This document shows positions 2,233 to 27,970 of a stretch of 47,676 nucleotides of DNA, one piece after another. Source of the DNA: Syntrophales bacterium (lineage in GTDB: Bacteria; Desulfobacterota; Syntrophia; Syntrophales; UBA2251). The stretch covers positions 1 to 47,676 of the forward strand of contig JALNWL010000001.1 of NCBI GenBank assembly GCA_023230905.1. The letters are read 5' to 3'. Under the pieces are notes generated by a model. That model had not been told where the DNA came from. It worked only from the letters and a program-made list of their open reading frames with translations, and made no database searches. A program made the position numbers and the translations under genes. Position 1 is the first letter of the stretch; each line of letters begins with the position of its first letter.

Positions 2233-2263
2233 TCAAACGAACGAGGCAGAAGGAATCGCCCTC

Positions 2264-5579: not shown

Positions 5580-5603
5580 AACTTGCATGCAGGGACAGAG
5601 GTT

Positions 5604-6383: not shown

Positions 6384-6404
6384 GATGAGGAACCGGGGGA
6401 TGAC

Positions 6405-7562
6405 ATGCTAGAGAAGGCCCTGCACGGAAATCACCGCTACTGGGGATGGCTCGCGTTCCTCGCCGTCGTCGTCGGCGCGGGCGCGTTTTTCTACCTCCGG
6501 CAGCTCGACTACGGCCTGGGCATCACGGGGATGAGCCGGGACGTCACCTGGGGGCTCTACATCGCCCAGTTCACGTTTCTGGTCGGGATCGCCGCCTCGG
6601 CCGTCATGGTCGTCCTGCCCTATTACCTCCACGACTACAAGGCGTTCGGCCGGATCACGATCCTGGGCGAATTCCTCGCGGTCGCCGCCGTCGTCATGTG
6701 CGTGACCTTCATCGTCATCGACCTCGGCCGGCCTGAACGCGCCTTCAACGTCCTGCTGCACCCTGCCCCCCGCTCTATCCTCTTCTGGGACATGGTCGTC
6801 CTGACGGGCTACCTCGTGCTCAACCTCGTTATCGGCTGGACGGTCCTGGAGAACGAGCGCAACGGCAAGGCGCCGCCCGCCTGGGTCAAGCCCCTGATCC
6901 TGCTTTCGATCCCCTGGGCGATCAGTATTCATACGGTCACGGCCTTCATCTACGCCGGCCTGCCGGGACGGGACTTCTGGCTGACGGCCATCATGGCCCC
7001 CCGCTTTCTCGCCTCCGCCTTCGCCTCGGGGCCTGCGCTGCTCGTGCTCCTCTGCCTCGTTCTGCGGCGCTGGGGCGGCTTCGACGCGGGCCGCGAGCCG
7101 CTCCAGGCGCTGGCCCGGATCATCGCCTACGCCTTGGCGGCGAGCCTCTTCTTCGTCCTCATGGAGCTCTTCACGGCCTTCTACAGCGGCATCCCCGGCC
7201 ACACGGAACCGTTCCGCTACCTCTACGCCGGTCTGGACGGGCACACGCGGCTTGTCCCGTGGATGTGGACCTCGGCCGTCCTGGCGGTCCTGGCCCTCGT
7301 GCTCCTGATCGTTCCGGCGCTGCGGCGCAACGAAGCCTGGCTCGCCCTGGCCTGCCTGGCCGTCTTCGCCTCGCTGTGGATCGAAAAAGGGCTGGGGCTT
7401 GTCGTCACGGGGTTCATCCCCTCCCCCCTGGGCCAGATCACCGAATACACGCCCACCGGCCCCGAGGTCGCGATCACGCTGGGCGTCTGGGCGCTGGGAT
7501 TCGTCATCCTGACGGCCCTCTACAGGATCGCCCTGGGCGTCAGGAAGGAAACGGAGGCATAG
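6405..7562 (+). CDS. dsrP: DsrP, NrfD/PsrC-like integral membrane subunit
   Basis: About 10 hydrophobic helices, NrfD-like size, located directly after dsrO. Confidence 0.8.
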   Translation: MLEKALHGNHRYWGWLAFLAVVVGAGAFFYLRQLDYGLGITGMSRDVTWGLYIAQFTFLVGIAASAVMVVLPYYLHDYKAFGRITILGEFLAVAAVVMCVTFIVIDLGRPERAFNVLLHPAPRSILFWDMVVLTGYLVLNLVIGWTVLENERNGKAPPAWVKPLILLSIPWAISIHTVTAFIYAGLPGRDFWLTAIMAPRFLASAFASGPALLVLLCLVLRRWGGFDAGREPLQALARIIAYALAASLFFVLMELFTAFYSGIPGHTEPFRYLYAGLDGHTRLVPWMWTSAVLAVLALVLLIVPALRRNEAWLALACLAVFASLWIEKGLGLVVTGFIPSPLGQITEYTPTGPEVAITLGVWALGFVILTALYRIALGVRKETEA

Positions 7563-8771: not shown

Positions 8772-8861
8772 GGGCGAACGGTCAACGGCGTAAAGCGAAG
8801 GGAACGGACCAAGGCGCAGGTCAAGCGACCCCGGGGAAAAGATTTGAATACAAAAATGGCC

Positions 8862-10073
8862 ATGAAGATTCTGGTTCTCAACTGCGGAGGCTCGTCGGTG
8901 AAGTACAAGCTCTACGACATGGAAAGCGGCCGGGTGGTGGCGCTCGGCTTTGCGGAACGGATCGGCCTGGCGGGCTCCGGGATCCGTCATCAGGCGGAGG
9001 GCGCGGCGGCCGTTTCCTTCGAACACACCCTGCGGGATCACCGGGAAGCGCTGGAAATCCTACTCGGGATGCGGCCCGGCGGTCCGCGTGCGGGCAGCAT
9101 CGACCCCGCGGCGATCACGGCCATCGGTCACCGGGTGGTCCACGGCGGCGAATATTTCCGGACCCCCGTGATCATCGACGACGCGGTCCTCGTCAATCTG
9201 AAGGCGTGCAGCACGCTGGCCCCTCTCCACAACCCCCACAACCTGGCGGGAATCGAGGTCTGCCGGAAACTGCTGACGGAGGTGCCGCAGGTGGCCGTCT
9301 TCGACACGGCCTTCCACCAGACCATGCCCCCCCTGGCCTACACATACGCGATCCCGCATCGTTACTACGACACCTACCGGATCCGCAAATACGGCTTCCA
9401 CGGCACCTCCCACCGCTACGTGGCCGAGCGCGCCGCCGAACTCGCGGGCCGTCCCCTGGCGGAGCTGAAGATCGTAACCTGCCACCTCGGGGCGGGGTGC
9501 AGCCTCTGCGCCGTCCGCGACGGGCACTCCATCGATACGACGATGGGCTTCACGCCGCTCGCGGGTGTCGTCATGGGAACCCGCTCGGGGGACATCGATC
9601 CCGCCCTCGTCCCGTTCATCGCCGACAAGGAAGGCCTGCCGCCCGCCGCCGTTATGGACATCCTGAACTCCGAAAGCGGGGTTTTCGGGATCTCCGGGAT
9701 CTCCGGCGATTTCCGGGATCTCCTGAAGGCCGCGCGGGAGGGGAACGAACGGGCGACACTCGCCCTGGACGTCTTCACGTACAGCATCGCCAAGGGGATC
9801 GGTTCGCTCCTGCCGGCCCTGGAGGGACTCGACGCCCTCGTTTTCACGGCCGGCATCGGCGAGAACTCGCCCGACATCCGCAGGCTGATCTGCCGGCGTC
9901 TGGCATATTTCGGCATCACGCTGGACGATGGGAAGAATGCCCTTGCCCGAACGGAAACGGACGTCGCGACGACGGAGAGCCGGGTCAGGATCTACGTCAT
10001 CCCGACGGACGAGGAGCGCATGATCGCCCGGGAAACGCGGAAGCTCATCGATCCTGGGCGGGGACCCGGCTGA
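8862..10073 (+). CDS. ackA: acetate kinase
   Basis: Canonical N-terminus [18 protein letters not shown], with HRVVHGG and GFHGTSH motifs. The track start 8844 is a TTG; ATG 8862 gives the usual length of about 403 aa. Confidence 0.9.
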
Positions 10074-10159
10074 AGGGCGGCAGCGGCAGCATCCCCCGCC
10101 GGGGAATCAAAGGGGTCAACCGGACAACGAACGAAATTCAACGCAATGGAGGTATCAAC

Positions 10160-11914
10160 ATGGCCAAGATCAAAATGACGCCCAGTGAGGCGATTGTGGA
10201 AACCCTGCTCGCCGAAGGCGTGGATCACGTCACCGGCATCGTCGGGAGCGCCTTTATGGACATGCTCGATCTCTTCCCCACGGCGGGGATCCGTTTCATC
10301 CCCGTTCGGCACGAGCAGAGCGCGGGGCACATGGAGGACGCCTACGCCCGGATCACCGGCCGGGCCGGGGTTCTCACGGGTCAGAACGGACCGGGGATCA
10401 CGAACATGGTCACCTCGGTCGCGGCGGCCAACATGGGCCATACGCCGCTCGTCATCATCTCCCCGTCGGCCGGGACGCCGACCATCGGCTGGGACGGTTT
10501 CCAGGAGTGCGACCAGGTCTCCGTCTTCAAGGCCATCACGAAGGCCACGGTCCGCGTGCCCCATCCCAAGCGGGCGGCCGACTGCCTGCGGACCGCCTTC
10601 CGGATCGCGTACGCCGACCGTGGGGCGGTCCTGTACGACATCCCCCGGGACTACTTCTACGGCGAGTTGGAAGAGGAGATCCTTCCGCCCCACCGCTACC
10701 GCGTGGACGCCCGGGGCTGCGGATCGCTCGCCGACATCGAGCGGGCGGCGAAGCTCCTCATGAACGCGAAGAACCCCGTCATCGTCTCCGGACGGGGGGT
10801 CGTGGACGCGGACGCCCTGGACGTGATCAAGGCCATTGCCGAGCACCTGACCGCGCCGGTCGCCGTGACCTATCTGCACAACGACGCCTTCTACGGGGAC
10901 CACCCCCTGTTCGTCGGCCCCATCGGGTACATGGGCTCCAAGGCGGCAATGCGGACCCTGGCCAAGGCGGACGTGATGCTCGCCGTGGGAACGCGCCTGT
11001 CGGTCTTCGGCACCCTGCCCCAGTACGACATCAACTACTTCCCGAAGAAGGCGAAGATCGTCCAGGTGGACATCAACCCGAAACACATCGCCCGGACGCA
11101 CCCCGTCGAGATCGGCATCATCGGGGACGCGAAGGAGGCCGCGGTGGAGATCCTGAAGCGCCTCCGGACCGCGGACAAGCGGCGGAAGCCGGATACGGCG
11201 CGCCTGGGGAAAATCGCCGCGGAGAGGAAAAAATGGGAGCAGGAGATCGTCCGGTTGGCGAGGGTCAAGGGAACGCCGATCAACCCCCGCCGCGTCCTTT
11301 TGGAGATGTCGCGGATGATGCCGGACAACGCCATCCTGACGACGGACATCGGCAACGTGTCCTCGACCGCCAACAGCTACTTCACCTTCAAGGGCGGCCG
11401 GCGCCACATCGCGGCACTCACCTTCGGCAACACGGGCTTCGCCTACCCGGCGGCCCTGGGCGCCCAGCTCGCCCGCCCCAAGGCGCCGGTCGTCGCCATC
11501 ATCGGCGACGGGGCCTGGGGGATGAGCCTCCACGAGATCAGCACCGCCGTGGAGCACAACCTGCCGGTCATCGCCTGCGTCTTCAGGAACATGTGGTGGG
11601 GCGCCGAGGCGAAGAACCAGGTGGACTTCTACAACAACCGCTTCATCGGGGTCGACATCCCGAACCCCGCGAGCTTCATCCCGGCGGCGGAGGCCCTGGG
11701 CGCCCGCGGCATCCGCGTGGAGCATCCGGACCAGATCGGGGAGGCCTTCAAATCGGCCCTCAAGATCCGCCGGCCCACCGTCCTGGAGTTTGTCGTGGAC
11801 GGCCGGCAGCTCGCCCCGCCCTTCCGGAAGGACGCCCTGGCGCTGCCCACGCGGCTCCTGCCGAAGTACGCCCACCTGGACCACCACAACTGGCGGACGG
11901 ACTACGACATGTAG
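10160..11914 (+). CDS. xsc: sulfoacetaldehyde acetyltransferase (Xsc)-like thiamine-diphosphate enzyme
   Basis: GGAGGT RBS then ATG 10160, 584 aa. TPP fold (GDGAWGM). Xsc-like blocks as I remember them: MTPSEA..VETL N-terminus, [35 protein letters not shown]. The 1109-aa track ORF is a composite. Confidence 0.75.
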
Positions 11915-11932
11915 CCCCCTCCCGAAACAAGG

Positions 11933-11974
11933 CCGCGGACCCGGCGGGGGTTGTTCCCCCGATCGGGTCCGCGG
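11933..11974 (+). terminator. strong GC hairpin after xsc (terminator-like, no clear U-tract)
   Basis: CCGCGGACCCG (11933-11943) pairs with CGGGTCCGCGG (11964-11974), with an inner GGGGG-TTGTT-CCCCC. Begins 18 nt after the xsc stop. Confidence 0.5.
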
Positions 11975-12280
11975 ATGCTTCCCGCCCCAGCGGCTGCGGC
12001 ACAGGCACCGGCTCCACGCTTCGGGTCGATAGGGTCACGTTCACTTGCCTGCGGGAAGAAGCGCCGCTCGAAGCCCCCGTGACGGTATGATCCCTGCAGC
12101 AAATGACCCAACGAAAAGATTGAATTGACATCCGGGGCGGGCTTCCCTATAGTGCCGCCGTCCACAGCCGAGACGTCGCCCTTCCGGGGAGGGTCCCGTT
12201 TTTCAGTGCAACGTCGCCATCACTGCAGATACGGCCTTTCGATCAACCCGAGACCCTCCGCCCCATGGAAAGGAATGCGC

Positions 12281-12823
12281 ATGTTGTATGAATTCGACGG
12301 CAGAACCCCACAGGTCGCCGACGGCGCCTATGTCAGCGACACCGCTACGGTGATCGGCGACGTCGTGATCGGCCCCCATTGTTACATCGGTCACGGCGCC
12401 ATCCTGCGGGGGGACTACGGCCGGATTGAGATCGGTCCGGGAACGGCAGTGGAGGAGGGCGTCATCATCCATGCCCCGCCGGAACGGGTCTGCCGGATCG
12501 GTGAAAAGGTCACCCTGGGACACGGGGCGGTCATTCACGGCCAGAGGCTCGGAGATTGCTCCGTCGTCGGCATGGGTGCGGTTTTGAGCATCCTCTCCGA
12601 GATCGGCGAATGGACCATCGTGGCGGAGGGGGCCGTTGTCAAGATCGGCCAGGCGATCCCGGATGGGATGGTCGCCGTGGGGAACCCGGCGGCCGTCGTT
12701 CGCGAGATCGCCGACCGGGACCGGGAGATGTGGAGCTGGGGCAAGCAGATCTACATCGATCTTGCGGAGAAATACCTGCGGGTCGGCCTTCATCCCGTTG
12801 CTCCGGACGGGCGGAACGGATAA
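12281..12823 (+). CDS. gamma-carbonic-anhydrase-like / hexapeptide-repeat (CaiE/PaaY/YrdA family) protein
   Basis: Left-handed beta-helix repeats (VIGDVVIGPHCYIGHGAILRGD...). GGAAAGGA RBS before ATG 12275/12281. Confidence 0.8.
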   Translation: MLYEFDGRTPQVADGAYVSDTATVIGDVVIGPHCYIGHGAILRGDYGRIEIGPGTAVEEGVIIHAPPERVCRIGEKVTLGHGAVIHGQRLGDCSVVGMGAVLSILSEIGEWTIVAEGAVVKIGQAIPDGMVAVGNPAAVVREIADRDREMWSWGKQIYIDLAEKYLRVGLHPVAPDGRNG

Positions 12824-12898
12824 CGAGGCCCGCCCCTCTCGGGATGACGATGAAGCGAACGCGACTTCGTTTCGGCAGAAGACTTGGAGACGACCGTT

Positions 12899-14377
12899 TC
12901 AGCCCCTCGGGAGCCCGGCGAGCCGTTCCTTTAACTCATTCGCAATATCGCTCATTTCTGCGCGGCCAAATAGATTATTCATCTCTCCCGGATCGCTTTT
13001 CAGATCAAAAAGCCAAGGACGTCTGCCGCGTTCAAACTCAATGTATTTGAAATTTTCGGTACGAATGCCCCGGTATGATGGCGTGTTTTCCGGGTAATAG
13101 CGCCAGAATTCAAGAAGGCAGGCCTCTCTGGTTTTCCCGCGGGGGTTCCCGAGAACAGGGGCAAGGCTGATACCGTCCATATCTCCGGGAACCTCAAGGC
13201 CCGCCAGGTCAAGCATCGTCGGGGCAACGTCAATATTCAAGATCATCTGATGTCTCCTTCCCCCGGGGTCATGAATGATGACGGGTGCCCTCACGATAAA
13301 AGGAAGGCGGATTGAATCCTCATAGGGTTCGCGAATTCCGTGGCAATGATGGGTTCCCCACTGCATGCCATTGTCACCCATGTATACCACGATGGTTTTC
13401 TCGCTCAGGTTGTGCCGGTCCAGATAATCGAGAATTCGGACGATATCCCGATCCATGGCGGTAAGGGTTTCGCAGTAGCGTCGATACTGATCCTCATAGG
13501 AGCCCATCATGATGCCCTGGAAGACATTCCCCCTCGTTTTCCCAAACCATATCGGGTCGACGTTCGGCGGAAGCACCCGGCTCACATCCGCGTCATGATA
13601 CATTCCAGCAATGTCCGCGGGCGCCTGAAAGGGCGGATGACCGGGCCGGTGCGCGAGATAGACGCAGAAGGGTCTGCCGTCATTTCGCGATCTCTGCTGG
13701 TCAATAAACTCGATCGCGTAATCCGTCACTTCCTCGGTGATATAGGGCTTGCGGGAAGGCACTTCGCGGCCATTGACAATCATCGGGCAGTTGAAGTAGG
13801 CACCCTGCCCCTCGCGATAGGTGTAGGCCACAAAAAGATCAAGAAAGGGGAGATGGGGCAAGCCGCCGGGCATGTGCCACTTCCCGATGAATGCCGTGGC
13901 GTATCCCTCACGACTCAGATATTCCGGGAAGGTCGTGAACCTGCCTGTCCAAGCGGTATGATTGTTCCTGACGCCATGCCGGTGGGCATAGGCCCCCGTC
14001 AGAATGCTGGCGCGGGAGGGGCTGCACAGAGCGGTGGTATTGAAGGCCTGCTCGAAAAGAACCCCTTCCCGGGCCAGCCTGTCCATTCCCGGGGTTTGAA
14101 TGAAGGGATGATGCGCACAGCCCATTGTTTTTGCGTTATGATTATCGCCGAGGATAAACAGGATATTGGGCCTGTTACCACCCCGCCTGCCGCGAGATCG
14201 CACAAGGGGGATGCCCGCCTTCGCTTTTTCACCCAAGGGTCGTTCCGTGGCACCGAGCCTATCTCCCAGCAGGCCGTATGCCGCATATCCCGCAAAGCCG
14301 GCCCCGAGGACTCTTCCTCCGGCCTTCAAAAGATCCCGTCTGGTTAAAACAGGGCGTTTATTTTCTCTGTTCATCAT
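12899..14377 (-). CDS. Tat-exported Cys-type sulfatase (arylsulfatase family)
   Basis: Twin-arginine signal TRRDLLKAGG and formylglycine motif CSPSRASILTG. Sulfatase-type N-terminal block NILFILGDNH. Confidence 0.85.
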   Translation of the reverse strand: MMNRENKRPVLTRRDLLKAGGRVLGAGFAGYAAYGLLGDRLGATERPLGEKAKAGIPLVRSRGRRGGNRPNILFILGDNHNAKTMGCAHHPFIQTPGMDRLAREGVLFEQAFNTTALCSPSRASILTGAYAHRHGVRNNHTAWTGRFTTFPEYLSREGYATAFIGKWHMPGGLPHLPFLDLFVAYTYREGQGAYFNCPMIVNGREVPSRKPYITEEVTDYAIEFIDQQRSRNDGRPFCVYLAHRPGHPPFQAPADIAGMYHDADVSRVLPPNVDPIWFGKTRGNVFQGIMMGSYEDQYRRYCETLTAMDRDIVRILDYLDRHNLSEKTIVVYMGDNGMQWGTHHCHGIREPYEDSIRLPFIVRAPVIIHDPGGRRHQMILNIDVAPTMLDLAGLEVPGDMDGISLAPVLGNPRGKTREACLLEFWRYYPENTPSYRGIRTENFKYIEFERGRRPWLFDLKSDPGEMNNLFGRAEMSDIANELKERLAGLPRG

Positions 14378-14418
14378 CGTCCCCCGCCGAGCGGCTTGCG
14401 GGTTGCTCCACGTTGTTC

Positions 14419-14982
14419 CTACAAGCCGCTTCCAAAAAAGAACCGGTATCCTTCAAGAAAGATCACATAGATATTTTCGCCCCTGCCCCAGGCGTACATC
14501 AGGGCAAAGACCGTGAGGCTCCCGGCAATGATCAGCGCGGGAACTCTCATGGAGTATGCCTTTTCATTCCTTTGGATGCGGATCTTTCTTACAATGAGCG
14601 CCGCGACACCTAACTCGGCACACATCAGGACAAAAAGCCAGATGCTCAGAGGGCTGAGATACCAGTAAAGGCATTCAAGGACGGGGTGGGATTCCGTCAG
14701 GATGAGCACTTCCTTTGTAATCCACGCAAAAGGTGTGACAAATGAAGCCAGGACACTCTCCGCCAAAGAGGCCCCCCGAAGCTGGGAAACCGTATAGACA
14801 TACAAAGCCCCGAAGGAAATCGAGACAAAATAGAAAAAGCCTGAAAGAGTCGCAACAACGAGGGTGAATGTTGTCCGGTCGGGAAACCTCAGGAAAAAGT
14901 AAACTGCGAACGAAAGCAGGGCCGCAACAAAAACGGGCAAGACCGGCATCCCTACGCGCAAAATAAATGATTTCCGTCCCAT
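14419..14982 (-). CDS. hypothetical polytopic membrane protein (co-directional with the sulfatase)
   Basis: Five to six hydrophobic helices and no recognised motif. ATG 14982 is chosen here; the track ORF extends to a GTG at 15063. Confidence 0.5.
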   Translation of the reverse strand: MGRKSFILRVGMPVLPVFVAALLSFAVYFFLRFPDRTTFTLVVATLSGFFYFVSISFGALYVYTVSQLRGASLAESVLASFVTPFAWITKEVLILTESHPVLECLYWYLSPLSIWLFVLMCAELGVAALIVRKIRIQRNEKAYSMRVPALIIAGSLTVFALMYAWGRGENIYVIFLEGYRFFFGSGL

Positions 14983-15230
14983 CGCCTCACCATCCCAATC
15001 GGAAACTCTCTTCACATTGATTTGCGGCGTCCATATAAGCTTATCGGCACGAGATGAAGTCACGTCGTTTATATTTCCGGGACTTCCGGCGGAAGAAAGC
15101 GGGTGGAGGAAGTCCCGCGGTCATACACAAACGGACACGGTTGATACCGAGACGGCGGAAGGAATGACGTTAAGTTTACCATGGACAGGCGAAGAAGGCC
15201 AGCGCGATTGTCGAGGCGGATAAAATCTTC

Positions 15231-15259
15231 TTGACACACACAAGAGACCCGAATACACT
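15231..15259 (+). promoter_or_regulatory. candidate sigma-70 promoter for the PLP-enzyme operon
   Basis: TTGACA (15231-15236), 17-nt spacer, TACACT (15254-15259), about 70 nt upstream of the CDS. Confidence 0.35.
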
Positions 15260-15328
15260 CCACTCTACACGAGTGAAATTCTTATCCATCCTTGGCTTTC
15301 CACCGCATGATGAATATGTGTTCATTTT

Positions 15329-16690
15329 ATGAATCGGGATTCATTGAATGAGGGAATGGGGATGATACAGATCGCACTTCCCAACAAGGGCGCTTCGCGC
15401 GATGGGGTGATGAGGGAGCTCAAGGCCCTGCATTCCGCGGACAACGATTGGCGGACGGGGCGGATGTTCAGCCTCATCTACAACGCCGGGGCCGATGTGG
15501 AATCGGTCGCCCGGGAGGCCTACGCCGAGTACATGGTGGAGAACGCGCTGAGCCCCTTCTCCTTCCCAAGCCTCCTCAAGATGGAGACGGAGTTGCTCTC
15601 CATGATCGCCACGCTCTTTCACGGGGAGACGGCCGTGGGCAGCATGACCTCGGGCGGATCGGAGAGCATCCTGATGGCGGTGAAGACCGCGCGGGAATGG
15701 GCGCGCGCGAAGCGGCCGGGGATCTCCTCCCCCGAGCTGGTCATGCCGGTCACCGCCCACCCGGCGTTCAACAAGGCGGCCCACTTCCTGGGGATCAGGG
15801 CGGTGGCGGTCCGCGTCGATGGCGGATTCCGCGCGAGCGTCCCGGACATGATCGGCGCGGTCACGGAGAACACCATCATGATGGTGGGGAGCGCCTTCAC
15901 CTATCCCCACGGCATGATCGATCCCATCGGCGAGCTTTCCGGCTTCGCGCTTGAAAACAACATCTGGTTCCACACCGACGCCTGCCTGGGAGGGTTCATG
16001 ATTCCCTTCCTCGAAATGGAGGGATACCCGGTGCGCCCCTTCGACTTCAGGCTTCCCGGCGTCAAGTCGATCTCGGCCGACATCCACAAGTACGGATACA
16101 CCCCGAAGGGGGCGTCGACGGTCACCTATCGCGACATGGATCTCAGGGAGTTCCAATTCTTCGCGTACGCGGACTGGCCCGGCGGTGTGTACGGGACGGC
16201 CTGCGTCTCCGGCGCTCGCCCCGGGGGGGCCATCTCCTCCGCATGGGCCGTGATGCGCTACCTCGGCCAAGAGGGGTTCCGCGGGCTTGCGTCGAAGGCC
16301 ATGAGGGCCGCCAAGCGTCTCAGGGCGGGTATCGAGGCGATTCCCGGCCTCCATGTTCTCGGGAACCCCGACGGGACCGTCTTCGCTTTCGGGAGCGACG
16401 GGTTGAACGTCTACGACCTGCGCGACGCCCTCAAGCGGCGGAACTGGCACGTGGAGAGCCAGCACCTCCCGCCCTGCCTGCACCTTACCGTCTGCCCCGT
16501 CCACGAGGAGGTCGTGGACGCGTTCCTCGAGGATCTCGCGGAGGCCTGCGGCGAGGCGGCTTCCGTGAGCGAGAACGACAGGACCGAAGACGCGGTGCTC
16601 TACGGGGTGATGGGGACCATCCCCGACAGGAGTCAGGCCCTGGATCTGGCGGTAAAATACCTCAACGACCTGTACAGGATCAAGCCATAA
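15329..16690 (+). CDS. PLP-dependent group II decarboxylase/lyase, sphingosine-1-phosphate-lyase-like
   Basis: PLP-lysine block SISADIHKYGYTPKGAS closely resembles the SPL-type motif SISADTHKYGF.PKG. No N-terminal TM segment. The true start may be ATG 15362. Confidence 0.7.
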   Translation: MNRDSLNEGMGMIQIALPNKGASRDGVMRELKALHSADNDWRTGRMFSLIYNAGADVESVAREAYAEYMVENALSPFSFPSLLKMETELLSMIATLFHGETAVGSMTSGGSESILMAVKTAREWARAKRPGISSPELVMPVTAHPAFNKAAHFLGIRAVAVRVDGGFRASVPDMIGAVTENTIMMVGSAFTYPHGMIDPIGELSGFALENNIWFHTDACLGGFMIPFLEMEGYPVRPFDFRLPGVKSISADIHKYGYTPKGASTVTYRDMDLREFQFFAYADWPGGVYGTACVSGARPGGAISSAWAVMRYLGQEGFRGLASKAMRAAKRLRAGIEAIPGLHVLGNPDGTVFAFGSDGLNVYDLRDALKRRNWHVESQHLPPCLHLTVCPVHEEVVDAFLEDLAEACGEAASVSENDRTEDAVLYGVMGTIPDRSQALDLAVKYLNDLYRIKP

Positions 16691-16698
16691 CGCACGAA

Positions 16699-17418
16699 AT
16701 GCTCCTGATGATCGGGTTCCTGGTGATCGCCCACGCGGTGGAGTCCGTCCTCGGCTTCGGCGCCACGGTCATCGCCTTCGGCCTGGGGGCGCATTTCTTC
16801 CCTGCCGACCGGCTGGTGGTGATCCTGGTGCTCATTGCGCTTGTTCAGAGCGCCTACCTCATGGCACGATGGTTCCGCGACATCGAGTGGGGAATCGTCT
16901 TCCGGTCCATCGCTCCCGCCGCGCTCATGGGACTGGCGGCTGGCATCCTGATCCGCAGCATGGTCAACGAAGGGATGCTGAAGTTGATCCTGGGGGGGTT
17001 CATCGTCACCCTCTCGCTTATCGAGCTGCGCTTCCTCTTTCTGAAAAAGGACGCTCCCCCCCGCGATCCTTCGGCGGTCACGGGATCCCTCCTGGTCTTC
17101 GGCGGGGGGGTGTTCCACGGCCTTCTCGCGGTCGGCGGGCCGCTGATCGTGTACTACGCGGGAAGGAAGCTCGCCTCCCAGGAGTCGGTGCGCGGAACAC
17201 TTGCATTCATCTGGATATTCCTCAACACGATCATGCTCGCGGGATTCATCGCGGACGGGAGCATTACCGCGGACGTTCTCTCTACCGCGGGTCTTCTGCT
17301 TCCGGGGGTGCTCGCGGGCATCCTCATCGGCAACAGGCTGAAAATCAGCGACAGGCTCTTCAAGACGGCAACGTACCTGCTGCTTCTCGTGGTCGGCGCA
17401 ACGCTGGTCCTGCCATGA
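16699..17418 (+). CDS. TauE/SafE (DUF81) family anion (sulfite/sulfonate) exporter-like membrane protein
   Basis: About 239 aa with 7-8 helices and the internally duplicated glycine-rich pattern typical of DUF81. ATG 16699 lies 8 nt after the PLP-gene stop. Confidence 0.65.
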   Translation: MLLMIGFLVIAHAVESVLGFGATVIAFGLGAHFFPADRLVVILVLIALVQSAYLMARWFRDIEWGIVFRSIAPAALMGLAAGILIRSMVNEGMLKLILGGFIVTLSLIELRFLFLKKDAPPRDPSAVTGSLLVFGGGVFHGLLAVGGPLIVYYAGRKLASQESVRGTLAFIWIFLNTIMLAGFIADGSITADVLSTAGLLLPGVLAGILIGNRLKISDRLFKTATYLLLLVVGATLVLP

Positions 17419-17458
17419 CCCGCGGCGGCGCTCCGAAGACCTTCAACCAGGAGGCGCC

Positions 17459-18634
17459 ATGAGCTTGATTCTTCTGAGTCTCACCTTCCTTCTGTTTCCC
17501 GCCGTGGTGATCTATGCGTGCGGCCGGTTCCCCGCGATCGACAAGATCGGAGCGGGCATCATCTGCTACGGTGCGGGCATCGCCCTGAGCCTCGCCGGAC
17601 TCGTTCCTGCGGGCGCAAGGCCGGTCCAGGAGGCGTTCATGAACGTGTCGGTGCCGCTCTCGATACCGCTGATGCTCTTCTCCGTAGACCTCAAACGCTG
17701 GTCCCGCCTCGCCGGAACGACGGCGACTTCCTTCGCGTGCATGATCCTCGCCGTCCTCTGCGCCACGGCGGCGGGTTTTCTCATTTTCGAGGACCGTCTG
17801 CCCGAGGTGTGGATGATAGCGGGAATGTCCATCGGCGTGTACACGGGCGGGACGCCCAACCTCAACGCGATCGGGCTCGCGCTGAAGGCCCCGGAGCACA
17901 TCATCGTCCTCGCGAACACCGCCGACATGTTGGTATGCATCCCCTGGTTCATCTTCATCCTTACCTTCGCCCAGCGGATCCTCAATCTCTTCCTTCCCCC
18001 TTTCGAGAAGCATCTCGCTTCCCCGGCCGCGGACGGTCGCAGCGCACCGGATACCGATTGGGAGACGAAAGACATCAATGACTACCGCAACATCTTCTCC
18101 CGGCCGGTCCTACTCCCGCTGACGGGGGGTCTCTGCCTCGCGCTCACCATCTTCGCGGCAGGCGTAGGCCTGTATTCAATCGCCCCGCGTGAGTACAACA
18201 TGGCGGTCCTGATGCTGGCCATCACTACCCTTGGGCTTGCGGCCTCGTTCATCCCCGCGGTCCGGAACATCGACAAGACGTTCCAGCTGGGCCAGTATAT
18301 CATCCTGGTGTTCTGCCTCGTGGTGGGCAGCATGGCGGACATCCGGCAGCTCGTGATCGCCGCCCCGCATATCATCCTGTACATGGCCCTGGTCGTGTAC
18401 GGCTCATTTGCCCTGCATCTCTTCATGAGCCGGATTTTCAAGGTCGACACCGACACGACGATCATCACGGCCACCGCGGCCATCTTCAGCCCGCCCTTCG
18501 TACCCGTGGTCGCCTCGGCCCTCAGGAACAGGGAGGTCGTCATATCGGGCCTTACCGCGGGCATCATGGGATACGTCATCGGCAACTATCTCGGCATCAC
18601 CATCGCCTACCTTCTGAGGGCCTGGGGAGGATAA
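17459..18634 (+). CDS. polytopic membrane transporter-like protein (tentatively DUF819-like)
   Basis: About 391 aa with 10 or more helices and a GVYTGGTPNLNAIG block. The family assignment is from memory only. Confidence 0.45.
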   Translation: MSLILLSLTFLLFPAVVIYACGRFPAIDKIGAGIICYGAGIALSLAGLVPAGARPVQEAFMNVSVPLSIPLMLFSVDLKRWSRLAGTTATSFACMILAVLCATAAGFLIFEDRLPEVWMIAGMSIGVYTGGTPNLNAIGLALKAPEHIIVLANTADMLVCIPWFIFILTFAQRILNLFLPPFEKHLASPAADGRSAPDTDWETKDINDYRNIFSRPVLLPLTGGLCLALTIFAAGVGLYSIAPREYNMAVLMLAITTLGLAASFIPAVRNIDKTFQLGQYIILVFCLVVGSMADIRQLVIAAPHIILYMALVVYGSFALHLFMSRIFKVDTDTTIITATAAIFSPPFVPVVASALRNREVVISGLTAGIMGYVIGNYLGITIAYLLRAWGG

Positions 18635-19439: not shown

Positions 19440-19964
19440 ATGAGCGTCATGCGAGCGAAAACGTGGTCCCCTTACGTTGCCGGCGCCTTGGCCGGTCTGC
19501 TGCTGGTCCTGTCCGTCTTCCTCACGGGGAAGTACTTCGGGGCCTCGACGACCTTCGTCCGCGCCGCGGGGTTTGTCGAGCAGTCCGTCGCGCCGGAAAA
19601 AGTGGCCGGCATGGAGTATTTCCTCAAGGAGAAGGCAAAGCTCGACTGGCAGGGAATGTTTGTCCTGGCGGTTCTCTTCGGTTCTCTCGCGGCGGCCTCG
19701 CTGTCCGGTGACCGGCGGGCGGTCCCGGTACCCGCGATGTGGGAGGCGCGCTTCGGGGCTTCCCGCGTCCGCCGCTGGACGCTGGCGTTCCTCGGCGGCG
19801 TGATCGTGATGTTCGGCGCGCGTCTCGCGGACGGGTGACCGAGCGGTCACGGTCTGAGCGGTCTGGCTCAGATAGCCATCAGCGGGTACATCTCTCTCGT
19901 CTGTTTCTTCCTGGCCGGCATTGTCGTGGCCAGAATCCTGTATGGAGGAGGTCAACGGCCATGA
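19440..19964 (+). CDS. YeeE/YedE-family sulfur-transport half-protein with predicted selenocysteine (UGA 19836-19838, residue 133)
   Basis: AAAGGAGG RBS then ATG 19440. The family motif G-C-x-S-G-H-G-x-x-G reads ADG-TGA-PSGHGLSG. The frame stays open for 41 more hydrophobic codons to TGA 19962-19964, which overlaps ATG 19961 of the partner gene. A GGUC-loop hairpin lies downstream. Confidence 0.75.
19853..19872 (+). promoter_or_regulatory. candidate bacterial SECIS hairpin
   Basis: UCUGAGC (19853-19859), loop GGUCUG, GCUCAGA (19866-19872). The stem starts 14 nt and the GGUC 21 nt after the UGA, comparable to the E. coli fdhF SECIS apex (GGUC). Confidence 0.6.
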
Positions 19965-20488
19965 ACGAACTTCTGACCGGCGCCGTCACGGGCCTTCTCT
20001 TCGGATTCATCATGCAGAAGGCCCAGGTCATCCGTTACGATCGTCAGTTGGGCGCCTTGCGCCTGCAGGACATGACCATCGTCAAATTCATGCTGAGCAC
20101 CATCCTGGTCGCCATGGTGGGGATCTACCTGCTTTTCGACCTGGGGATGGTGAAACTCTCCATCAAGTCCACGATCCTGGGGGCAAACATCGTGGGCGGC
20201 CTGATCTTCGGTATCGGCTGGGGCCTGGTGGGCTATTGCCCGGCCACGGCCATGGCGGCCTTGGGCGAGGGGCGCTACGACAGTCTCTTCGGGCTTCTGG
20301 GAATGCTGCTCGGAGCGGGCCTCTTCGCCGAGGCGTACCCGTTCCTCAAGGCGACCGTGCTCACCTGGGGAAACTTCGGCAAGATCAGCATCCCGGCGGC
20401 CCTGGGTGTCAACCACTGGATCGTGATCGTCATCCTGGTCGCGGCCTTTGTCGGACTTTTCTACTGGTTCGAGAAGAAGGGGCTATAG
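19961..20488 (+). CDS. YeeE/YedE-family sulfur-transport half-protein (partner subunit)
   Basis: GIGWGLVGYCPATA motif (GyCPg type), 5-6 helices, GGAGGAGG RBS at 19944-19951. Confidence 0.8.
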   Translation: MNELLTGAVTGLLFGFIMQKAQVIRYDRQLGALRLQDMTIVKFMLSTILVAMVGIYLLFDLGMVKLSIKSTILGANIVGGLIFGIGWGLVGYCPATAMAALGEGRYDSLFGLLGMLLGAGLFAEAYPFLKATVLTWGNFGKISIPAALGVNHWIVIVILVAAFVGLFYWFEKKGL

Positions 20489-20541: not shown

Positions 20542-21972
20542 TTATCGATTCTTCGGATCCCTCGGGTCTCCCTTGTAACCCAGGGCCTTCCAGTCAAACC
20601 GTCCGTTCTCGCCGTGGCAATCGCCGCACTTCAGCGAGCGGTCCCTGGAAACCACCATGTGGTGCACAGGCCAGATCATGGTGGTTTCCACGAAGCCGAA
20701 CCGGCCGCTGTACGGCTGTCCGGCGGCCTTCATCCCGCTGGCAATGGCGCGGTCCCAGTCATACTTCTGCCAATAGGCGTCACTGCCCGGAGGGCCGAAA
20801 ACCCGCACGTAGGCGATGGTGTTGTTCCCTCTGTCGTAGGCCTGCTTCCCCCTCATGATCTTGAACGGGTAGATCTTGGAATGGGGATCGTTGCGGCCGC
20901 CCGTGACGTGCGTCAGCTTCACCGCTTTGGTCGGATCGATCTTGTCGCCGGCATGGTAGCGTTCAATGTTTCCGTTGAACCACAGGTAGGTGGGCATTAC
21001 GTCCTTATCCCACTTGAAGTCTCCTTTCATCTTGTCGTAGAGCTTCATGCCGTACTGGTCCTTCGGGATATCCTCCGCCTTGATGTCCTTCCCCGCCGTG
21101 GACCAGTCCCACCAGGTCTTGGTCGGCCGGGCCTTGGCGAAGGTAGGGATATGGCAGCTCTGGCAGGCCACCCTCTCGGTGTGCTTGTTCACCAGGAAGT
21201 TCCGGTGCACATTGCCCGTGTGACAATCGACGCAGTCGATGTGGCTCGGGTGGGTGTGGGTGAGGGTGACGGAGGCCGCTTCCCCCTTGAGGAAGTGGTC
21301 CTTGGCCTGATGGCACGCCTGGCAGGTCATCTTGCTCTTGCCCCCCATGTGGATGTCGATCTCGGGGGAAGGATGGGCCATGGAGGTGTCCAAGTCTCCG
21401 TGCTTGACGTGATCCCCCCCGCCACCGTAGAAGTGGCAGGCCCCACAGGTCGTGCGGCTCGTCGGGCCGACGGACTGGGCCACTTTCAAAAGGTCGGCGG
21501 GCGGCCATGGCGTGCCCTTGGGGAACTCCCTGGCTTCTCCCGCGTAGGCCGGGTGGCCCGCCGCGGTCGGAAATTTCTTGTAGGCACCGGTCGTGTCGTG
21601 GCAGACTAGGCAATCGACGTTTTCCGCCTTGCTGAAGTCGAAACTCTCATCCTTGAAGCCGTAGCCGGCGTGGCAACTGGTGCATCGCGGCCAGTTCCCG
21701 GGCAGCCCGATGCAGAAGTTGTTCAGCGCGTTCAGCTTGCCGATGTTGACCGTTTTCCCTTTCCATTTCTGTTCTTTTGTCCAAGTCCAGTGGACGGTTT
21801 TCATGAAGTCCCGGGTTTCCTTCTCATGACACTCGATACACTTTTTTGTGACTTCGGGTCCGCTCTTGAAGGGGCCCTTGCCGACCAGTTCGACATGGCC
21901 GGCCAAGGCCGCCGATGCCAAGACGATTCCGGAAAGCAATGAGAATGCGACAGCCCATCGGGACGTCCTCAT
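20542..21972 (-). CDS. octahaem c-type cytochrome, tetrathionate-reductase (OTR) family
   Basis: Eight CXXCH motifs (CIECH, CTSCH, CLVCH, CGACH, CQACH, CVDCH, CQSCH, CGDCH). Signal peptide MRTSRWAVAFSLLSGIVLASAALA. GGAAGGAGGG RBS 7 nt before ATG 21972; the longer track ORF is not needed. Confidence 0.8.
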   Translation of the reverse strand: MRTSRWAVAFSLLSGIVLASAALAGHVELVGKGPFKSGPEVTKKCIECHEKETRDFMKTVHWTWTKEQKWKGKTVNIGKLNALNNFCIGLPGNWPRCTSCHAGYGFKDESFDFSKAENVDCLVCHDTTGAYKKFPTAAGHPAYAGEAREFPKGTPWPPADLLKVAQSVGPTSRTTCGACHFYGGGGDHVKHGDLDTSMAHPSPEIDIHMGGKSKMTCQACHQAKDHFLKGEAASVTLTHTHPSHIDCVDCHTGNVHRNFLVNKHTERVACQSCHIPTFAKARPTKTWWDWSTAGKDIKAEDIPKDQYGMKLYDKMKGDFKWDKDVMPTYLWFNGNIERYHAGDKIDPTKAVKLTHVTGGRNDPHSKIYPFKIMRGKQAYDRGNNTIAYVRVFGPPGSDAYWQKYDWDRAIASGMKAAGQPYSGRFGFVETTMIWPVHHMVVSRDRSLKCGDCHGENGRFDWKALGYKGDPRDPKNR

Positions 21973-22300
21973 AAAGACCCTCCTTCCGTTCATCGTTTCT
22001 CGAGAAGAATGACCCTGCTGGGTGTTGATCATAGAGAATCGACTGAGGGAAGTCAATCCGAAAATATCAGCTATTCCGGAGTCCTTCATCCAAACCGGCG
22101 GCGATCGTCGCCCAGAACGGGCGTTCCCCCGGCGGTTTTCTCCGGATTTTCTCCCGAAAGCCCCACACCGTCTTTTGTTCTCTCGTCATGCTGAAGGGCT
22201 TTTTCCGTTTGACATCCCCATCCCCCATACCTTAAGGTCTGAACGCCAAAAAACAAGCGTTGACCCGACAACGATCCGACTTTTTGAAAGGAGTCAAGCC

Positions 22301-22648
22301 ATGAAGAAATTCGCCTTGTTCGTATTCAAAGGAGATCCCCTGTGCTTCATCCACGTGCTCTTGAACGCCATGGATATGAAAGCCAAAGGGCATGAGGCGA
22401 AAATCATCCTCGAAGGCGCCGCGGTCAAACTGGTGCCCGAACTTGTGAAAGCTAACAATCCGCTGAATGGATTGTGGAAAAAGAGTCTCGACGCCGGCTT
22501 GGTTGAAGGCGTCTGCAAAGCCTGTTCGAACAAACTGGGAACCCTCGAGGCCGCCAAAGCGCAAGACTTGACCCTTCTTGACGATATGTCCGGTCATCCC
22601 GGCATGGCATCGTACCGGGATAAGGGATACGAAATCATTTCCTTCTGA
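22301..22648 (+). CDS. small DsrE-like (DsrE/DsrF fold) protein
   Basis: 115 aa. GAAAGGAG RBS. Conserved-looking blocks FVFKGDPLCFIHVLLNA and GVCKACSNKLG. Family assignment is from memory. Confidence 0.55.
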   Translation: MKKFALFVFKGDPLCFIHVLLNAMDMKAKGHEAKIILEGAAVKLVPELVKANNPLNGLWKKSLDAGLVEGVCKACSNKLGTLEAAKAQDLTLLDDMSGHPGMASYRDKGYEIISF

Positions 22649-22742: not shown

Positions 22743-24827
22743 TCACGTGCGCGGGCCGAGCAGGCGACAGGGCAGGCCCTTCAGGTTGGGGGTCCCGAAC
22801 TCCCGGCCCAGTTTTTCCACGGACGTCAGCAGGTTGACATTCGCTTCCCCCCAGTCGTACTGGCGGGCGGGGTCGCCCTCCGGGAACCACCATCCCGGGG
22901 AGGCGCAGATCACCCTGGGATCGAGGCCGTCGGTGAGCCGGGCGCGCTGGGTCATCGCACCGTGCCTCGTCTCGATGACAACCCTCTCCCCGTCGCCGAT
23001 GCCGTGGCGGGCGGCCGTTTCGGGGTGGATCTCCACCGTCGGATGGGGCCGTCTTTCCCTGAGTCTTCGTATCCAGCGGTAGGATGAGTGCAAAAAATAG
23101 CGGCTCTTGGCGCTGATCAGGAGCAGCGGATAATCCGGATCGTCCTCCTCGGGAAATCCCGAAAATTCGGGCAGGGCCGTAAGCCCGAACTTCCCCGCGG
23201 TGCTCAGGCGCAGCTCCACCTTCCCCGTCGGCGTCGAAAATCCCTTCTCTTCGTAGGCTCGGAAGCGGTCCGGCCCCTTGAGGTATCCCCTCTCCACGAA
23301 CTGCCGGTAGGTCAGTCCCGCCGGGCGGACGACGTCCTCCAGAAACGCTTCGTGGTCCTCTGGCCACAGCTCGGGGGAGGAGACGCGTTTTCCCAATTCG
23401 TTCAGGATTTTCATGTCCGGCCAGCAGCCCTCGGGCGGCTCGACGATCTTGGGACGGGCGAAGATCACGCCGTGGCCGAGACCGTAGTGCCCGATGTCGT
23501 TCATCTCGTACTGGTGGGCGACGGGCAGGACGATGTCCGCCATGGCCGCCGTCGGCGTCATGAAGAGATCGGCAACGGCCACGAAGTCGAGGCGTTTGAA
23601 GGTCTCGAAGGTGCGCCGGCTGTCCGCCCAGGCCACCATCGGATTCGTACACATCCCGTAGAAACCCCGGACGGGATAGGGCACGTCCTTAAGAACCGCC
23701 TGGCGGAAGAAGGCCGGGGCGACCGTCATGAGCCGCGGGATGATGCCGTGGTGGGCGCCGATCATCTCCTTGCGCTTGTCCGGAATGAGGTCGGCACGAA
23801 CGAACGGTCCGAGACCCATGATCTTCGGGTCCCGGGCGTTGACGTTGCCCCCGGAGACGTCGAGATTGCCGCAGACGGCCATGAGACAGACAAGCGCGCG
23901 GATCGCGTCGAAGGCGTTGACACTGTGTTCGACGGCATTGCCCCACTGGAGGGCCGCCGGTTTCGCCGCGGCGTACATCCGGGCGGCCCGGCGGATCTGC
24001 TCGGCGGGCACCCAGGTGATCTCCGCCACCCTCTCGGGGGGATACGCCTTCACCTGCCGGACGAGATCTTCAAAACCGTAAGTGTACGTCTCGACAAAGG
24101 CCTTGTCGTACAGGGATTCTTCGCAGATCACGTGGAGCATCCCGAGGGCCAGGGCCGGATCCGTACCGGGCCTGAGCGGGAGCCAAAGGTCGGCCTTCTC
24201 GGCAAGCTCGATCCGCCGGGGATCCACAACGACGAGCTTCGCGCCGCCCTTCACCCGCTCCAGGAGCTGAACGGCGATCTGCCCCTCTTCGTGGGTGGAG
24301 GTGAGATTGCTTCCCCAGAGCAACATCAGTTCGGTCGGATGATGGAGGTCCGCCACGGGGTAAAACCCGCAGGTGTGAACGCCCGTGATCTCCCGGGGGG
24401 CATGGCAGACATCCTGCGAAGCGACAACGTTGGGGGATCCGAAGAGGTTGGCCAGGCGGATTAAAACGAAATGTTCGAGCCCCTTCGGCATGCCGACACC
24501 GAAACCCACGGCCCGGGCGCCGTAGGTCTCCCGGATGCGCCGCAGATTCTCGGCCGTCTCCTCCAGGGCCTGCTCCCAGGAAATGGCCTGCCATTTCCCT
24601 TCGCCTCGCCCGCCCACCCGTTTCAGCGGTTGCTTCAGGCGGTCGGGATGGGTGAGGCGCTCCGCCGACACCCGCCCCTTGAAACAGGTATACCCCCGGT
24701 TCAGGTACCCGTCCGGATCGCCCTCGATCCGGACGATTTCGTTGCCCCGGACCCCGACCCGGAGACCGCAGCCCCCGTGGTCCATGCGCGCACAGTGGGT
24801 TTTCACCCAGCGAAGCTCTTCTGACAT
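22743..24827 (-). CDS. cytoplasmic molybdopterin (bis-MGD) oxidoreductase, DMSO-reductase superfamily, substrate unknown
   Basis: About 695 aa with family-typical blocks (GSNLTSTHEEG, LVVVDPR, C-terminal barrel). No Tat signal. ATG 24827 is preferred; the track start 24851 is a GTG. Confidence 0.8.
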   Translation of the reverse strand: MSEELRWVKTHCARMDHGGCGLRVGVRGNEIVRIEGDPDGYLNRGYTCFKGRVSAERLTHPDRLKQPLKRVGGRGEGKWQAISWEQALEETAENLRRIRETYGARAVGFGVGMPKGLEHFVLIRLANLFGSPNVVASQDVCHAPREITGVHTCGFYPVADLHHPTELMLLWGSNLTSTHEEGQIAVQLLERVKGGAKLVVVDPRRIELAEKADLWLPLRPGTDPALALGMLHVICEESLYDKAFVETYTYGFEDLVRQVKAYPPERVAEITWVPAEQIRRAARMYAAAKPAALQWGNAVEHSVNAFDAIRALVCLMAVCGNLDVSGGNVNARDPKIMGLGPFVRADLIPDKRKEMIGAHHGIIPRLMTVAPAFFRQAVLKDVPYPVRGFYGMCTNPMVAWADSRRTFETFKRLDFVAVADLFMTPTAAMADIVLPVAHQYEMNDIGHYGLGHGVIFARPKIVEPPEGCWPDMKILNELGKRVSSPELWPEDHEAFLEDVVRPAGLTYRQFVERGYLKGPDRFRAYEEKGFSTPTGKVELRLSTAGKFGLTALPEFSGFPEEDDPDYPLLLISAKSRYFLHSSYRWIRRLRERRPHPTVEIHPETAARHGIGDGERVVIETRHGAMTQRARLTDGLDPRVICASPGWWFPEGDPARQYDWGEANVNLLTSVEKLGREFGTPNLKGLPCRLLGPRT

Positions 24828-24951
24828 CTCTCTCGAACAGTCGGTATCCACGGCGGTCTCGGCCCGGATGCCAAGCCAATCCTTGCCCTTGAACAGCCGG
24901 CCCAGGGCGTACCCGGGACGTCGACAGGCTGACCGGGCTGCAGGGGCCGCC

Positions 24952-27053: not shown

Positions 27054-27662
27054 TCAATCGAACGCCATCTTCGTTTTCCAGACTTCCCAGACCTTGCCGA
27101 CGAGTCCCGGACCGGGCTTCAGCGTGAGTTTCCCCGGCTTCCAGCCCGAAGGCATGGCTTCCGTGCCCTTGCTCTTGCGGACGTGCTGGAAGGCCTGGAA
27201 CTGGCGGATCGTTTCGCCCACGTTGCGCCCCACCGGCGGCGTGAGCACCTCGAATCCCTGGATGACGCCGTCGGGATCGATCAGGAACCGTCCCCGGGCC
27301 TCCACGCCCGCATCCTCCAGATAAACGCCGTAGACGGAGCCGACCCGGCCGCCGCCGTCGGACAGCATCGGGAAAGGCACGCCGCCCTTGACCATCCTGG
27401 ACAGCTCATGATCGTTCCACATCTTGTGGACAAAAACGCTGTCCACGCTCATGGAGAGCACCTCGACGCCCAGCTTTTTGAATTCGGGATATTTTTCGGC
27501 GACCGCCGAAATTTCCGTCGCTCAGACAAAGGTGAAGTCCCCGGGGTAGAAACACAGGCTGACCCATTTCCCCAGGAATTCGGACAACTGAACGGAGATG
27601 AACTTTCCCTTGTGGTACGCCGGCGCCGTAAAATCGGGTGCCTTTTTGCCGACCGTAATCAT
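27054..27662 (-). CDS. peroxiredoxin (AhpC/Prx1 type) with selenocysteine replacing the peroxidatic Cys (UGA 27524-27522, residue 47)
   Basis: AAGGAGG RBS 8 nt before ATG 27662. The motif [15 protein letters not shown] corresponds to FYP.DFTFVCPTE. The same frame continues into ORF 27054-27461. A GGUC tetraloop hairpin follows 10 nt later. Confidence 0.85.
27494..27511 (-). promoter_or_regulatory. candidate bacterial SECIS hairpin
   Basis: Minus strand reads UUUCGGC-GGUC-GCCGAAA, a 7-bp stem with a GGUC tetraloop. The loop is 17 nt after the UGA. Confidence 0.7.
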
Positions 27663-27970
27663 CGCTTTGACCTCCTTGATCATTGGCTGCTGAGGGGAAT
27701 CCTTGGACGTGTCCGCTTTTTCGCCGACCGGACCGCCGGTCGGCCGGGCGCATCCCGCCTTGATTTCCTTTCCCATACGCGATGTCCTCCCTTCCTTCAA
27801 TTTTGCCTCGGCATCCTCAAACCGGAAACGGGGACAGGCCCTGACTCCGGAACATCTTCGGGTTCGTATTCCCTTGACTTGAAGAATCGTTCCCCGCCGT
27901 TGACATACGTCCCGACCCGCCCGGCGTCAGGAAACCGGCCCATAGACGTATCGCAAGGCGCCCCGCCCCA

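Follow-up and report, generated by a model that had tools for sequence, protein, structure and literature searches.

A predicted selenocysteine at the conserved pore cysteine of a split YeeE/YedE transporter from a Syntrophales bacterium

In a 47,676-nucleotide stretch of DNA from a Syntrophales bacterium (GenBank assembly GCA_023230905.1, contig JALNWL010000001.1, positions 1 to 47,676; hereafter the window), the gene for a membrane transporter subunit of the YeeE/YedE family (Pfam PF04143, Sulf_transp) carries an in-frame UGA at 19836-38. This UGA almost certainly encodes selenocysteine (Sec) in place of a key pore cysteine (Cys), and we place the probability that it is a selenocysteine codon in a split YeeE/YedE transporter subunit, identity and family assignment together, at about 0.9. 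The reading draws on homology that runs across the UGA, on a covarying hairpin 3′ of it that would serve as a bacterial selenocysteine insertion sequence (SECIS), on the codons found at the same site in related loci and on a second selenoprotein gene in the window. The features concerned are listed below.

19440..19964, plus strand: PmpA-type (C-terminal-half-like) YeeE/YedE subunit, UGA predicted to be read through (PF04143, alignment to 6LEO/8J4C, Cys orthologues)
19836..19838, plus strand: UGA for predicted selenocysteine 133 (at the only conserved Cys of PmpA-type subunits, equivalent to Cys293 of TsuA)
19852..19873, plus strand: putative bacterial SECIS hairpin, 8-bp stem, loop GGUCUG, starting 14 nt after the UGA (folding, covariation)
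19944..19951, plus strand: Shine-Dalgarno sequence GGAGGAGG of the partner gene, inside the extension and 9 nt ahead of ATG 19961
19961..20488, plus strand: PmpB-type (N-terminal-half-like) partner, 175 amino acids (aa) (PF04143 positions 17-150, PF20398, alignment to 6LEO)
27054..27776, minus strand: PrxU-type peroxiredoxin, predicted selenoprotein, UGA 27522-24 at the peroxidatic Cys (NF040737, translation, hairpin)

Reading frame and homology across the UGA

The open reading frame (ORF) beginning at ATG 19440 meets its first in-frame stop at TGA 19836-38, where the conceptual product ends in FGARLADG. Past this codon the frame stays open for another 41 codons (PSGHGLSGLAQIAISGYISLVCFFLAGIVVARILYGGGQRP), up to TGA 19962-64, which shares bases (ATGA) with the ATG of the partner gene at 19961. 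All of these coordinates had been put forward in an earlier note, made by a model from the letters of the DNA, and they check out. In the public record the protein is MCK9231177.1 ('YeeE/YedE family protein [Syntrophales bacterium]'), cut off at the UGA after 129 aa, and the identical protein is found on at least 23 independently assembled contigs. Of the 32 confident genes in the window, 21 end in TGA as their ordinary stop, so reassignment of the genetic code is excluded and the recoding is local.

Two starts are possible, and the product would therefore be 174 or 171 aa long. A Shine-Dalgarno sequence, AGGAGG (19434-39), directly touches ATG 19440; ATG 19449 (MRAKTW...), the start chosen in the public annotation, has the better Shine-Dalgarno distance, with a spacing of 9 nt. 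Orthologues, however, align from the 19440 position (MNVLREKTW...).

With Cys set at the UGA, residues 5-161 of the 174-aa product match PF04143 (E = 1.3e-20; 74.6 bits, cut-off 27) over profile positions 173-309 of 310, and the match runs through the UGA into the extension. The A subunit, as the product is called here, was further aligned to residues 235-329 of the Spirochaeta thermophila YeeE/TsuA structures 6LEO and 8J4C. In that alignment residue 133 falls on the Cys of ...TAGGC(293)NIGH..., and the extension covers the last transmembrane (TM) helix of both PF04143 and 6LEO. Full-length orthologues (172-177 aa, 73-82% identical) read GARLADG-C-PSGHGLSG, and their Cys at column 133 is invariant (alignment A1). 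The alignment to PF04143 and the Cys at column 133 were both checks proposed in the earlier note, and both came out as it predicted: the match spans the UGA, and the UGA does fall on the conserved Cys column. The family signature from which the note worked, G-C-T-S-G-H-G-x-C-G, was only approximately right; the subfamily reads G-C/U-P-S-G-H-G-L-S-G, without the second Cys. These alignments strongly support the reading that Sec133 stands for the A subunit's single conserved Cys, and we infer that this Cys/Sec position is the equivalent of TsuA/YeeE Cys293.

The SECIS hairpin

The hairpin consists of a 5′ arm at 19852-59 (GUCUGAGC), the loop GGUCUG at 19860-65 and a 3′ arm at 19866-73 (GCUCAGAU). 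If the U of the UGA is numbered 1, nucleotides 17-24 pair with 31-38. Its folding energy is -19.4 kcal/mol (z = -2.5). It had been described beforehand as a 7-bp hairpin with this loop and with GGUC 21 nt from the UGA; the hairpin is real, the loop is right and GGUC begins 21 nt after the A of the UGA, and only the stem needs correction, to 8 bp (seven Watson-Crick pairs and one G·U).

The pairing was followed across 63 unique TGA-form sequences, collapsed to 61 distinct rows for pair counts, over the five pairs of the lower stem, which is 97.7% paired. Pair 18-37, which links a four-fold-degenerate third position of a Gly codon with the first base of an Ile, Val or Leu codon, is G-C in 24 rows, A-U in 13, C-G and U-A in 8 each and G-U in 3, and is broken in 5. 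Pair 19-36 alternates between C-G and U-A, the Leu codon going from CUG to UUG where the Gln codon goes from CAG to CAA, and no sequence breaks it. Covariation scores 0.295, compared with 0.074 for shuffled alignments (0 of 500 shuffles as high), with 34 double-sided changes, and sliding the 3′ partner by one to three columns as a control lowered pairing to 12-50%. Among 22 unique Cys-form sequences, by comparison, pairs 18-37 and 19-36 hold in only 8 and 14, respectively, and the Gly codon of the loop is GGU in 9, as against 59 of the 63 Sec forms. These observations support a hairpin that covaries, is specific to the TGA forms and is decayed in most Cys forms.

Two structural classes were recognized: an LSGLAQ-type, to which the window belongs, with an 8-bp stem and the loop GGUCUG, and an LSGSLQ-type with a bulged stem and the loop GGUUCG. 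As in the SECIS of E. coli fdhF, the hairpin lies directly 3′ of the UGA within the coding sequence and presents GGU(C) in its apical loop, at positions 25-28 from the U of the UGA in the window and 22-25 in fdhF. The window's stem is shorter (8 bp), however, and is of class 1, without a bulged U. A smaller hairpin that includes the UGA itself (UGACC-GAGC-GGUCA, 19836-49) was considered as a part of the SECIS and rejected, because the GGU it requires at codon 4 is present in only 28 of the 63 Sec forms.

Sec and Cys forms among relatives

A protein search returned 4428 relatives, including dozens of 'truncated' entries of 129-133 aa from metagenome-assembled genomes (MAGs) of Syntrophales, Smithella and Syntrophaceae, all of which stop at GARLADG. 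For comparison at the DNA level, 16 genome loci, 80 metagenome loci and a few contigs with the exact protein were sampled; the scan of the genome collection from a single protein gave only the 16 loci, and the metagenome scan was added for usable statistics. One of the two search patterns used in the metagenome scan contained the Cys, so the ratio of Sec to Cys forms is, if anything, biased toward Cys.

In 100 related loci with the motif (window excluded), the codon at this site is TGA in 76, TGC in 16 and TGT in 8, and never TAA or TAG. The search of related genomes for TGA or TGC here, which had been suggested beforehand, thus found both and no other stop. The Sec form is prevalent, not rare, among the sampled loci, outnumbering the Cys form about 3:1. 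TGA forms were seen in Syntrophales/Thermodesulfobacteriota and, with identity down at 53-55%, also in Synergistota. All 69 unique TGA-form extensions are free of stops over the next 36 codons, and at the protein level the extension is 60-100% identical across phyla. Codon differences between these extensions and that of the window are synonymous only in 817 cases and amino-acid-changing in 679. This pattern is the signature expected of translated sequence under purifying selection. In a neighbour-joining tree of 85 unique sequences, Sec and Cys forms are interspersed, so at least 12 switches between Sec and Cys are needed.

The partner subunit

The partner, or B subunit, matches PF04143 at 60.9 bits over profile positions 17-150, and PF20398 as well. 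It aligns to residues 3-120 of 6LEO, with its Cys93 (GYCPATA, TGC 20237-39) on Cys91 and Ile24 at the position of TsuA Cys22. The Cys91-equivalent codon is TGC or TGT in all 59 B subunits examined and TGA in none; judged by these codons, Sec is confined to the A subunit. The predicted ribosome-binding site of the partner within the extension was found where the earlier note had placed it (GGAGGAGG, 19944-19951). That stop and start overlap as ATGA suggests that A and B are translationally coupled, and Cys-form orthologues have comparable stop/start overlaps of 4-8 nt.

This arrangement resembles PmpA/PmpB of Serratia sp. ATCC 39006, a pair for which Gristwood 2011 is reportedly the source. Both systems have two adjacent half-size genes, with C293 in the C-terminal half (A) and C91 in the N-terminal half (B); in the window, U133 lies on C293 and C93 on C91. 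Li et al. (2024; PMC11582611) describe PmpA as the C-terminal half of YeeE with the C293 Cys and PmpB as the N-terminal half with the C91 Cys. In contrast to that pair, the subunits here are of about 175 rather than about 130 aa, and the Cys of the A subunit would be Sec. Neither a regulator nor a pmpC-like neighbour was seen beside the window's pair.

The thiosulfate transporter TsuA/YeeE, which works with TsuB/YeeD and is represented by the E. coli protein and the S. thermophila structures 6LEO, 6LEP, 8J4C and 8K1R, shares the fold family, its C91 and C293 appearing here as Cys93 of B and Sec133 of A. It differs as a single chain of 330-350 aa with an extra central helix and a third Cys (C22).

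Selenocysteine decoding by the host

The earlier note had further claimed that a peroxiredoxin gene in the window shows the same combination of UGA and GGUC hairpin and that the host therefore decodes Sec. The gene is there: on the minus strand, UGA 27522-24 interrupts the reading ...DFTFV-UGA-ATEIS, and the hairpin UUUCGGC-GGUC-GCCGAAA follows 13 nt after it. The product scores 391 bits against the NCBIfam model NF040737 (cut-off 270) of PrxU, a known selenoprotein. Gene callers break the gene into pieces of 84 and 132 aa. PrxU in the same window bears out the claim of Sec decoding as strong, indirect evidence that the host would read UGA in this way. PrxU also appears in the selenoprotein discussion of a 2026 review (Zhang et al., PMC13188914).

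Proposed mechanism and substrate

In TsuA, C293 lies in a periplasmic indentation and forms a hydrogen bond to thiosulfate at position I, and a substrate relay from C293 to C91 to C22 has been proposed; the C293A and C91A mutants are inactive, and the S. thermophila protein tolerates C22A (PMC7449682). We propose the following sequence of events, of which the recoding of the UGA under the direction of the hairpin just 3′ of it is strongly supported. The hairpin at 19852-19873 would recruit SelB·Sec-tRNA(Sec), as characterised bacterial SECIS elements do. Translation would then pass the UGA and continue through the last TM helix to the stop at 19962-64, whose overlap with the partner start would allow both subunits to be made together. 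The A(Sec133)/B(Cys93) heterodimer would form a TsuA-like pore, in which Sec would sit at the outer capture site and Cys93, the counterpart of Cys91, would come next in the relay. A selenolate at the capture site may outdo a thiol as nucleophile or as leaving group. The heterodimer probably moves reduced inorganic sulfur (thiosulfate, or sulfane/zero-valent sulfur) across the membrane; confidence in the substrate and in what Sec does chemically is far lower than in the selenoprotein identity and the family assignment.

Several results count against this view of the substrate. Scores with the TsuA models NF041049 and NF052577 are 33-46 bits, far below the cut-offs of 400-645. No TusA/YeeD-like gene is adjacent to the pair, the neighbours being a CBS-domain protein and an octahaem cytochrome, and no gene neighbourhood is common to all orthologue loci, in which only a flavoprotein (11 loci) and a thioredoxin (4) recur. 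Scores with the YedE/FdhT models NF033796 and TIGR04112 are 29-34 bits, far below the cut-offs of 350 and 200, so the gene is not a YedE/FdhT member. YedE is nevertheless distantly homologous, within the same superfamily, and bioinformatics ties it to selenium through its gene neighbourhood (selD, yedF); no report of Sec within YedE itself was found.

A possible, if doubtful, alternative to thiosulfate import is that the pair carries zero-valent or sulfane sulfur (polysulfide, persulfide) or a selenium species, through a transient Se-S or Se-Se adduct to be resolved by a reductase in the cytoplasm. According to PMC11582611, which cites Liu et al. (2023), uptake of zero-valent sulfur has been reported for PmpAB-like proteins, and the YedE branch is tied to selenium transport, although the scores of the window's gene with the YedE/FdhT selenium models fall far short. 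A selenol would be largely deprotonated at neutral pH and should therefore act as a nucleophile, not as a donor of the S-H···S hydrogen bond proposed for C293. A flavoprotein resembling coenzyme A disulfide reductase or Npsr lies on the same strand beside the AB pair in the 11 loci, all of them Sec forms, and the thioredoxin in 4; yet the flavoprotein is absent from the window, and most loci have flanks of only 1.5 kb, so its Sec-only association is weakly sampled.

Selenolate chemistry would favour passing sulfane sulfur on covalently, through Se-S, or a faster exchange. Since a selenolate could not give a hydrogen bond of the C293 type, covalent catalysis may apply. In its fullest form, which we regard as speculative and unlikely, these half-transporters would take sulfane sulfur from polysulfide or thiosulfate outside the cell as a transient Se-S adduct and pass it to Cys93 and then to the cytoplasm, with the flavoprotein or thioredoxin resetting the site, the Sec form being prevalent in the sample (76/100) and having switched with Cys at least 12 times.

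Other readings of the UGA

Some results weigh against the selenocysteine reading itself. A random 41-codon frame stays open with a probability of about 0.32 in DNA of 63% G+C, the composition of the stretch, so the open frame alone proves nothing; the significance of the extension is taken to rest on homology and conservation. The hairpin lies inside the conserved peptide GLSGLAQ, and its sequence conservation is therefore partly protein-driven. Rfam gave no SECIS family, either at the gathering threshold on the whole window or at E <= 10 on 19800-19920, where a chance U3 match was the only hit. No selA, selB or selD was detected by Pfam among the 20 other ORFs of the 47.7-kb window and no selC by ARAGORN, which reported 0 tRNAs of any kind in it; the Sec machinery of the host is therefore inferred. 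An AlphaFold model of the closest Cys orthologue (P0001; 11-sequence alignment) was too poor to place the residue, with a predicted local distance difference test (pLDDT) score of 47 and a predicted template-modelling score (pTM) of 0.31. Finally, a close Cys form (TGT; L017:3397-3444) keeps the hairpin intact (GGUCUGAGC-GGUCUG-GCUCAGAU). In another TGT form (L019:3397-3444) it is partly decayed, with the loop GGACUG and one C·A mismatch. Both look like 'fossil' SECIS elements, pointing to recent conversions from Sec to Cys.

It is very unlikely that the UGA is read without Sec, by near-cognate Trp or Cys insertion or a suppressor tRNA, or that it serves mainly as a selenium-dependent switch for making full-length A and its coupled partner. 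Sec-tRNA in the host is presumed, not proven by any gene of the window, and the ATGA coupling would be compatible with a switch. Against this, the codon lies on the Cys column, a GGU-loop hairpin stands at roughly the fdhF-like distance and a PrxU gene co-occurs; Sec decoding is the sole known mechanism with these signatures, and a regulatory role would add to it rather than replace it.

A genuine stop at this TGA, giving a truncated protein of 129-132 aa followed by 41 untranslated codons that merely house the partner's ribosome-binding site, is highly improbable. Gene callers and the NCBI annotation do end the gene there, TGA is the most frequent of the window's stops and the open frame could arise by chance as computed above. 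Such a spacer, however, would hardly be 60-100% identical across phyla, free of stops in 69 of 69 cases and marked by a synonymous excess, nor would it match the last TM helix of PF04143 and 6LEO. In addition, wherever this stop occurs it is TGA without exception and falls on the Cys column, and the truncated product would be missing both the essential Cys and the last helix. A pseudogene, or a TGC or TGT turned into TGA by a sequencing or assembly error, is a reading with a negligible chance: one base separates these codons and the window appears metagenome-assembled, but the identical protein recurs on at least 23 independent contigs, TGA recurs in 76 of 100 other loci down to 53% identity, and a covarying hairpin accompanies it.

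Catalogue status and novelty

The earlier note was unsure whether a Sec form of this family had been catalogued. Its selenoprotein reading stands, and the form has been listed: Supplementary Table S3 of Peng et al. (2016, ISME J) gives a 'YeeE/YedE family' selenoprotein with five sequences in five organisms, and the 2026 review (PMC13188914) gives its motif as GUxSG. The gene described here is thus a mis-annotated member of a selenoprotein family catalogued since 2016, not a new kind of protein, and its novelty is low. Two reviews (PMC9312934, PMC13188914) mention YeeE/YedE in one sentence, among predicted Sec-containing transporter subunits. The Global Ocean Sampling paper given by the review as a source has no mention of it in its main text, and the traceable listing is that of Peng et al. 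(2016).

The window's D-G-U-P-S-G-H-G places Sec in a G-U-x-S-G motif of a PF04143 protein, as in the catalogued selenoprotein, and both were predicted from a Cys/Sec pair and a bacterial SECIS. The likeness to the catalogued reference WP_012471001.1 is one of motif and Pfam family. A protein search started from the Cys orthologue of Pelobacter propionicus did not list this accession, and in the literature it turned up only in the two reviews.

The searchable literature did not yield the Cys293 equivalence, the restriction of Sec to A, the predominance of the Sec form or the frequent switching between Sec and Cys. The Cys293 mapping, the A/B asymmetry, the two covarying SECIS classes, the roughly 3:1 excess of TGA and the frequent switching appear to go beyond the catalogue entry. 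These additions make a good experimental system, not a new kind of thing, and that such a selenoprotein exists was known already. Few transporters are selenoproteins, and YeeE/YedE Sec forms have so far been characterised by sequence. The Cys-containing homologue has a crystal structure and a growth-complementation assay, which offer a handle on the role of Sec at the mouth of a sulfur pore. Meanwhile, the gene is wrongly annotated as a 129-aa fragment, as are dozens of its orthologues from MAGs of Syntrophales, Smithella and Synergistota, and should be re-annotated as a selenoprotein of about 171-174 aa.

Gene neighbourhood

The flavoprotein that recurs at orthologue loci is a pyridine-nucleotide-disulfide oxidoreductase of 476-479 aa with the motif VICSLPYGVG at its N-terminus; its best match is the coenzyme A disulfide reductase model TIGR03385 (145 bits, below cut-off). 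It was located at L002:1389-2828 and L007:224-1654, and downstream of the B gene in L044, L051, L056, L065, L066, L070 and L103. Neither it nor the thioredoxin occurs in this window, among whose other genes are the following.

44-7562, plus strand: two consecutive pairs of a DsrM-like (Nitrate_red_gam) and a DsrK/HdrD-like (Fer4 + CCG) protein, then a Fer4_11 protein and an NrfD-family (DsrO/DsrP-like) protein
8844-18634: acetate kinase, thiamine pyrophosphate (TPP) enzyme, hexapeptide transferase, sulfatase (minus strand), pyridoxal phosphate (PLP) decarboxylase, TauE-family permease and DUF819 membrane protein, with an organosulfur flavour
20542-22089, minus strand: octahaem c-type cytochrome, tetrathionate-reductase family (TIGR04315, 603 bits), downstream of the transporter pair and convergent with it
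22301-22648, plus strand: ORF of 115 aa with no family match
22743-24851, minus strand: molybdopterin oxidoreductase, likewise downstream and convergent, apparently without a signal peptide (cytoplasmic); best NCBIfam matches Fdh-alpha and PhsA, all below cut-off

GenBank-annotated Sec members of the octahaem tetrathionate-reductase family are listed in the 2026 review (PMC13188914); the window's octahaem cytochrome gene has no in-frame UGA. The sulfur-flavoured context of the transporter pair is only suggestive. Within 8844-18634, the TPP enzyme (584 aa) is a candidate sulfoacetaldehyde acetyltransferase-like protein, and the PLP-dependent decarboxylase is MfnA/GAD-like, with scores below cut-off. 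The genes at 44-7562 suggest a membrane redox module of sulfur metabolism.

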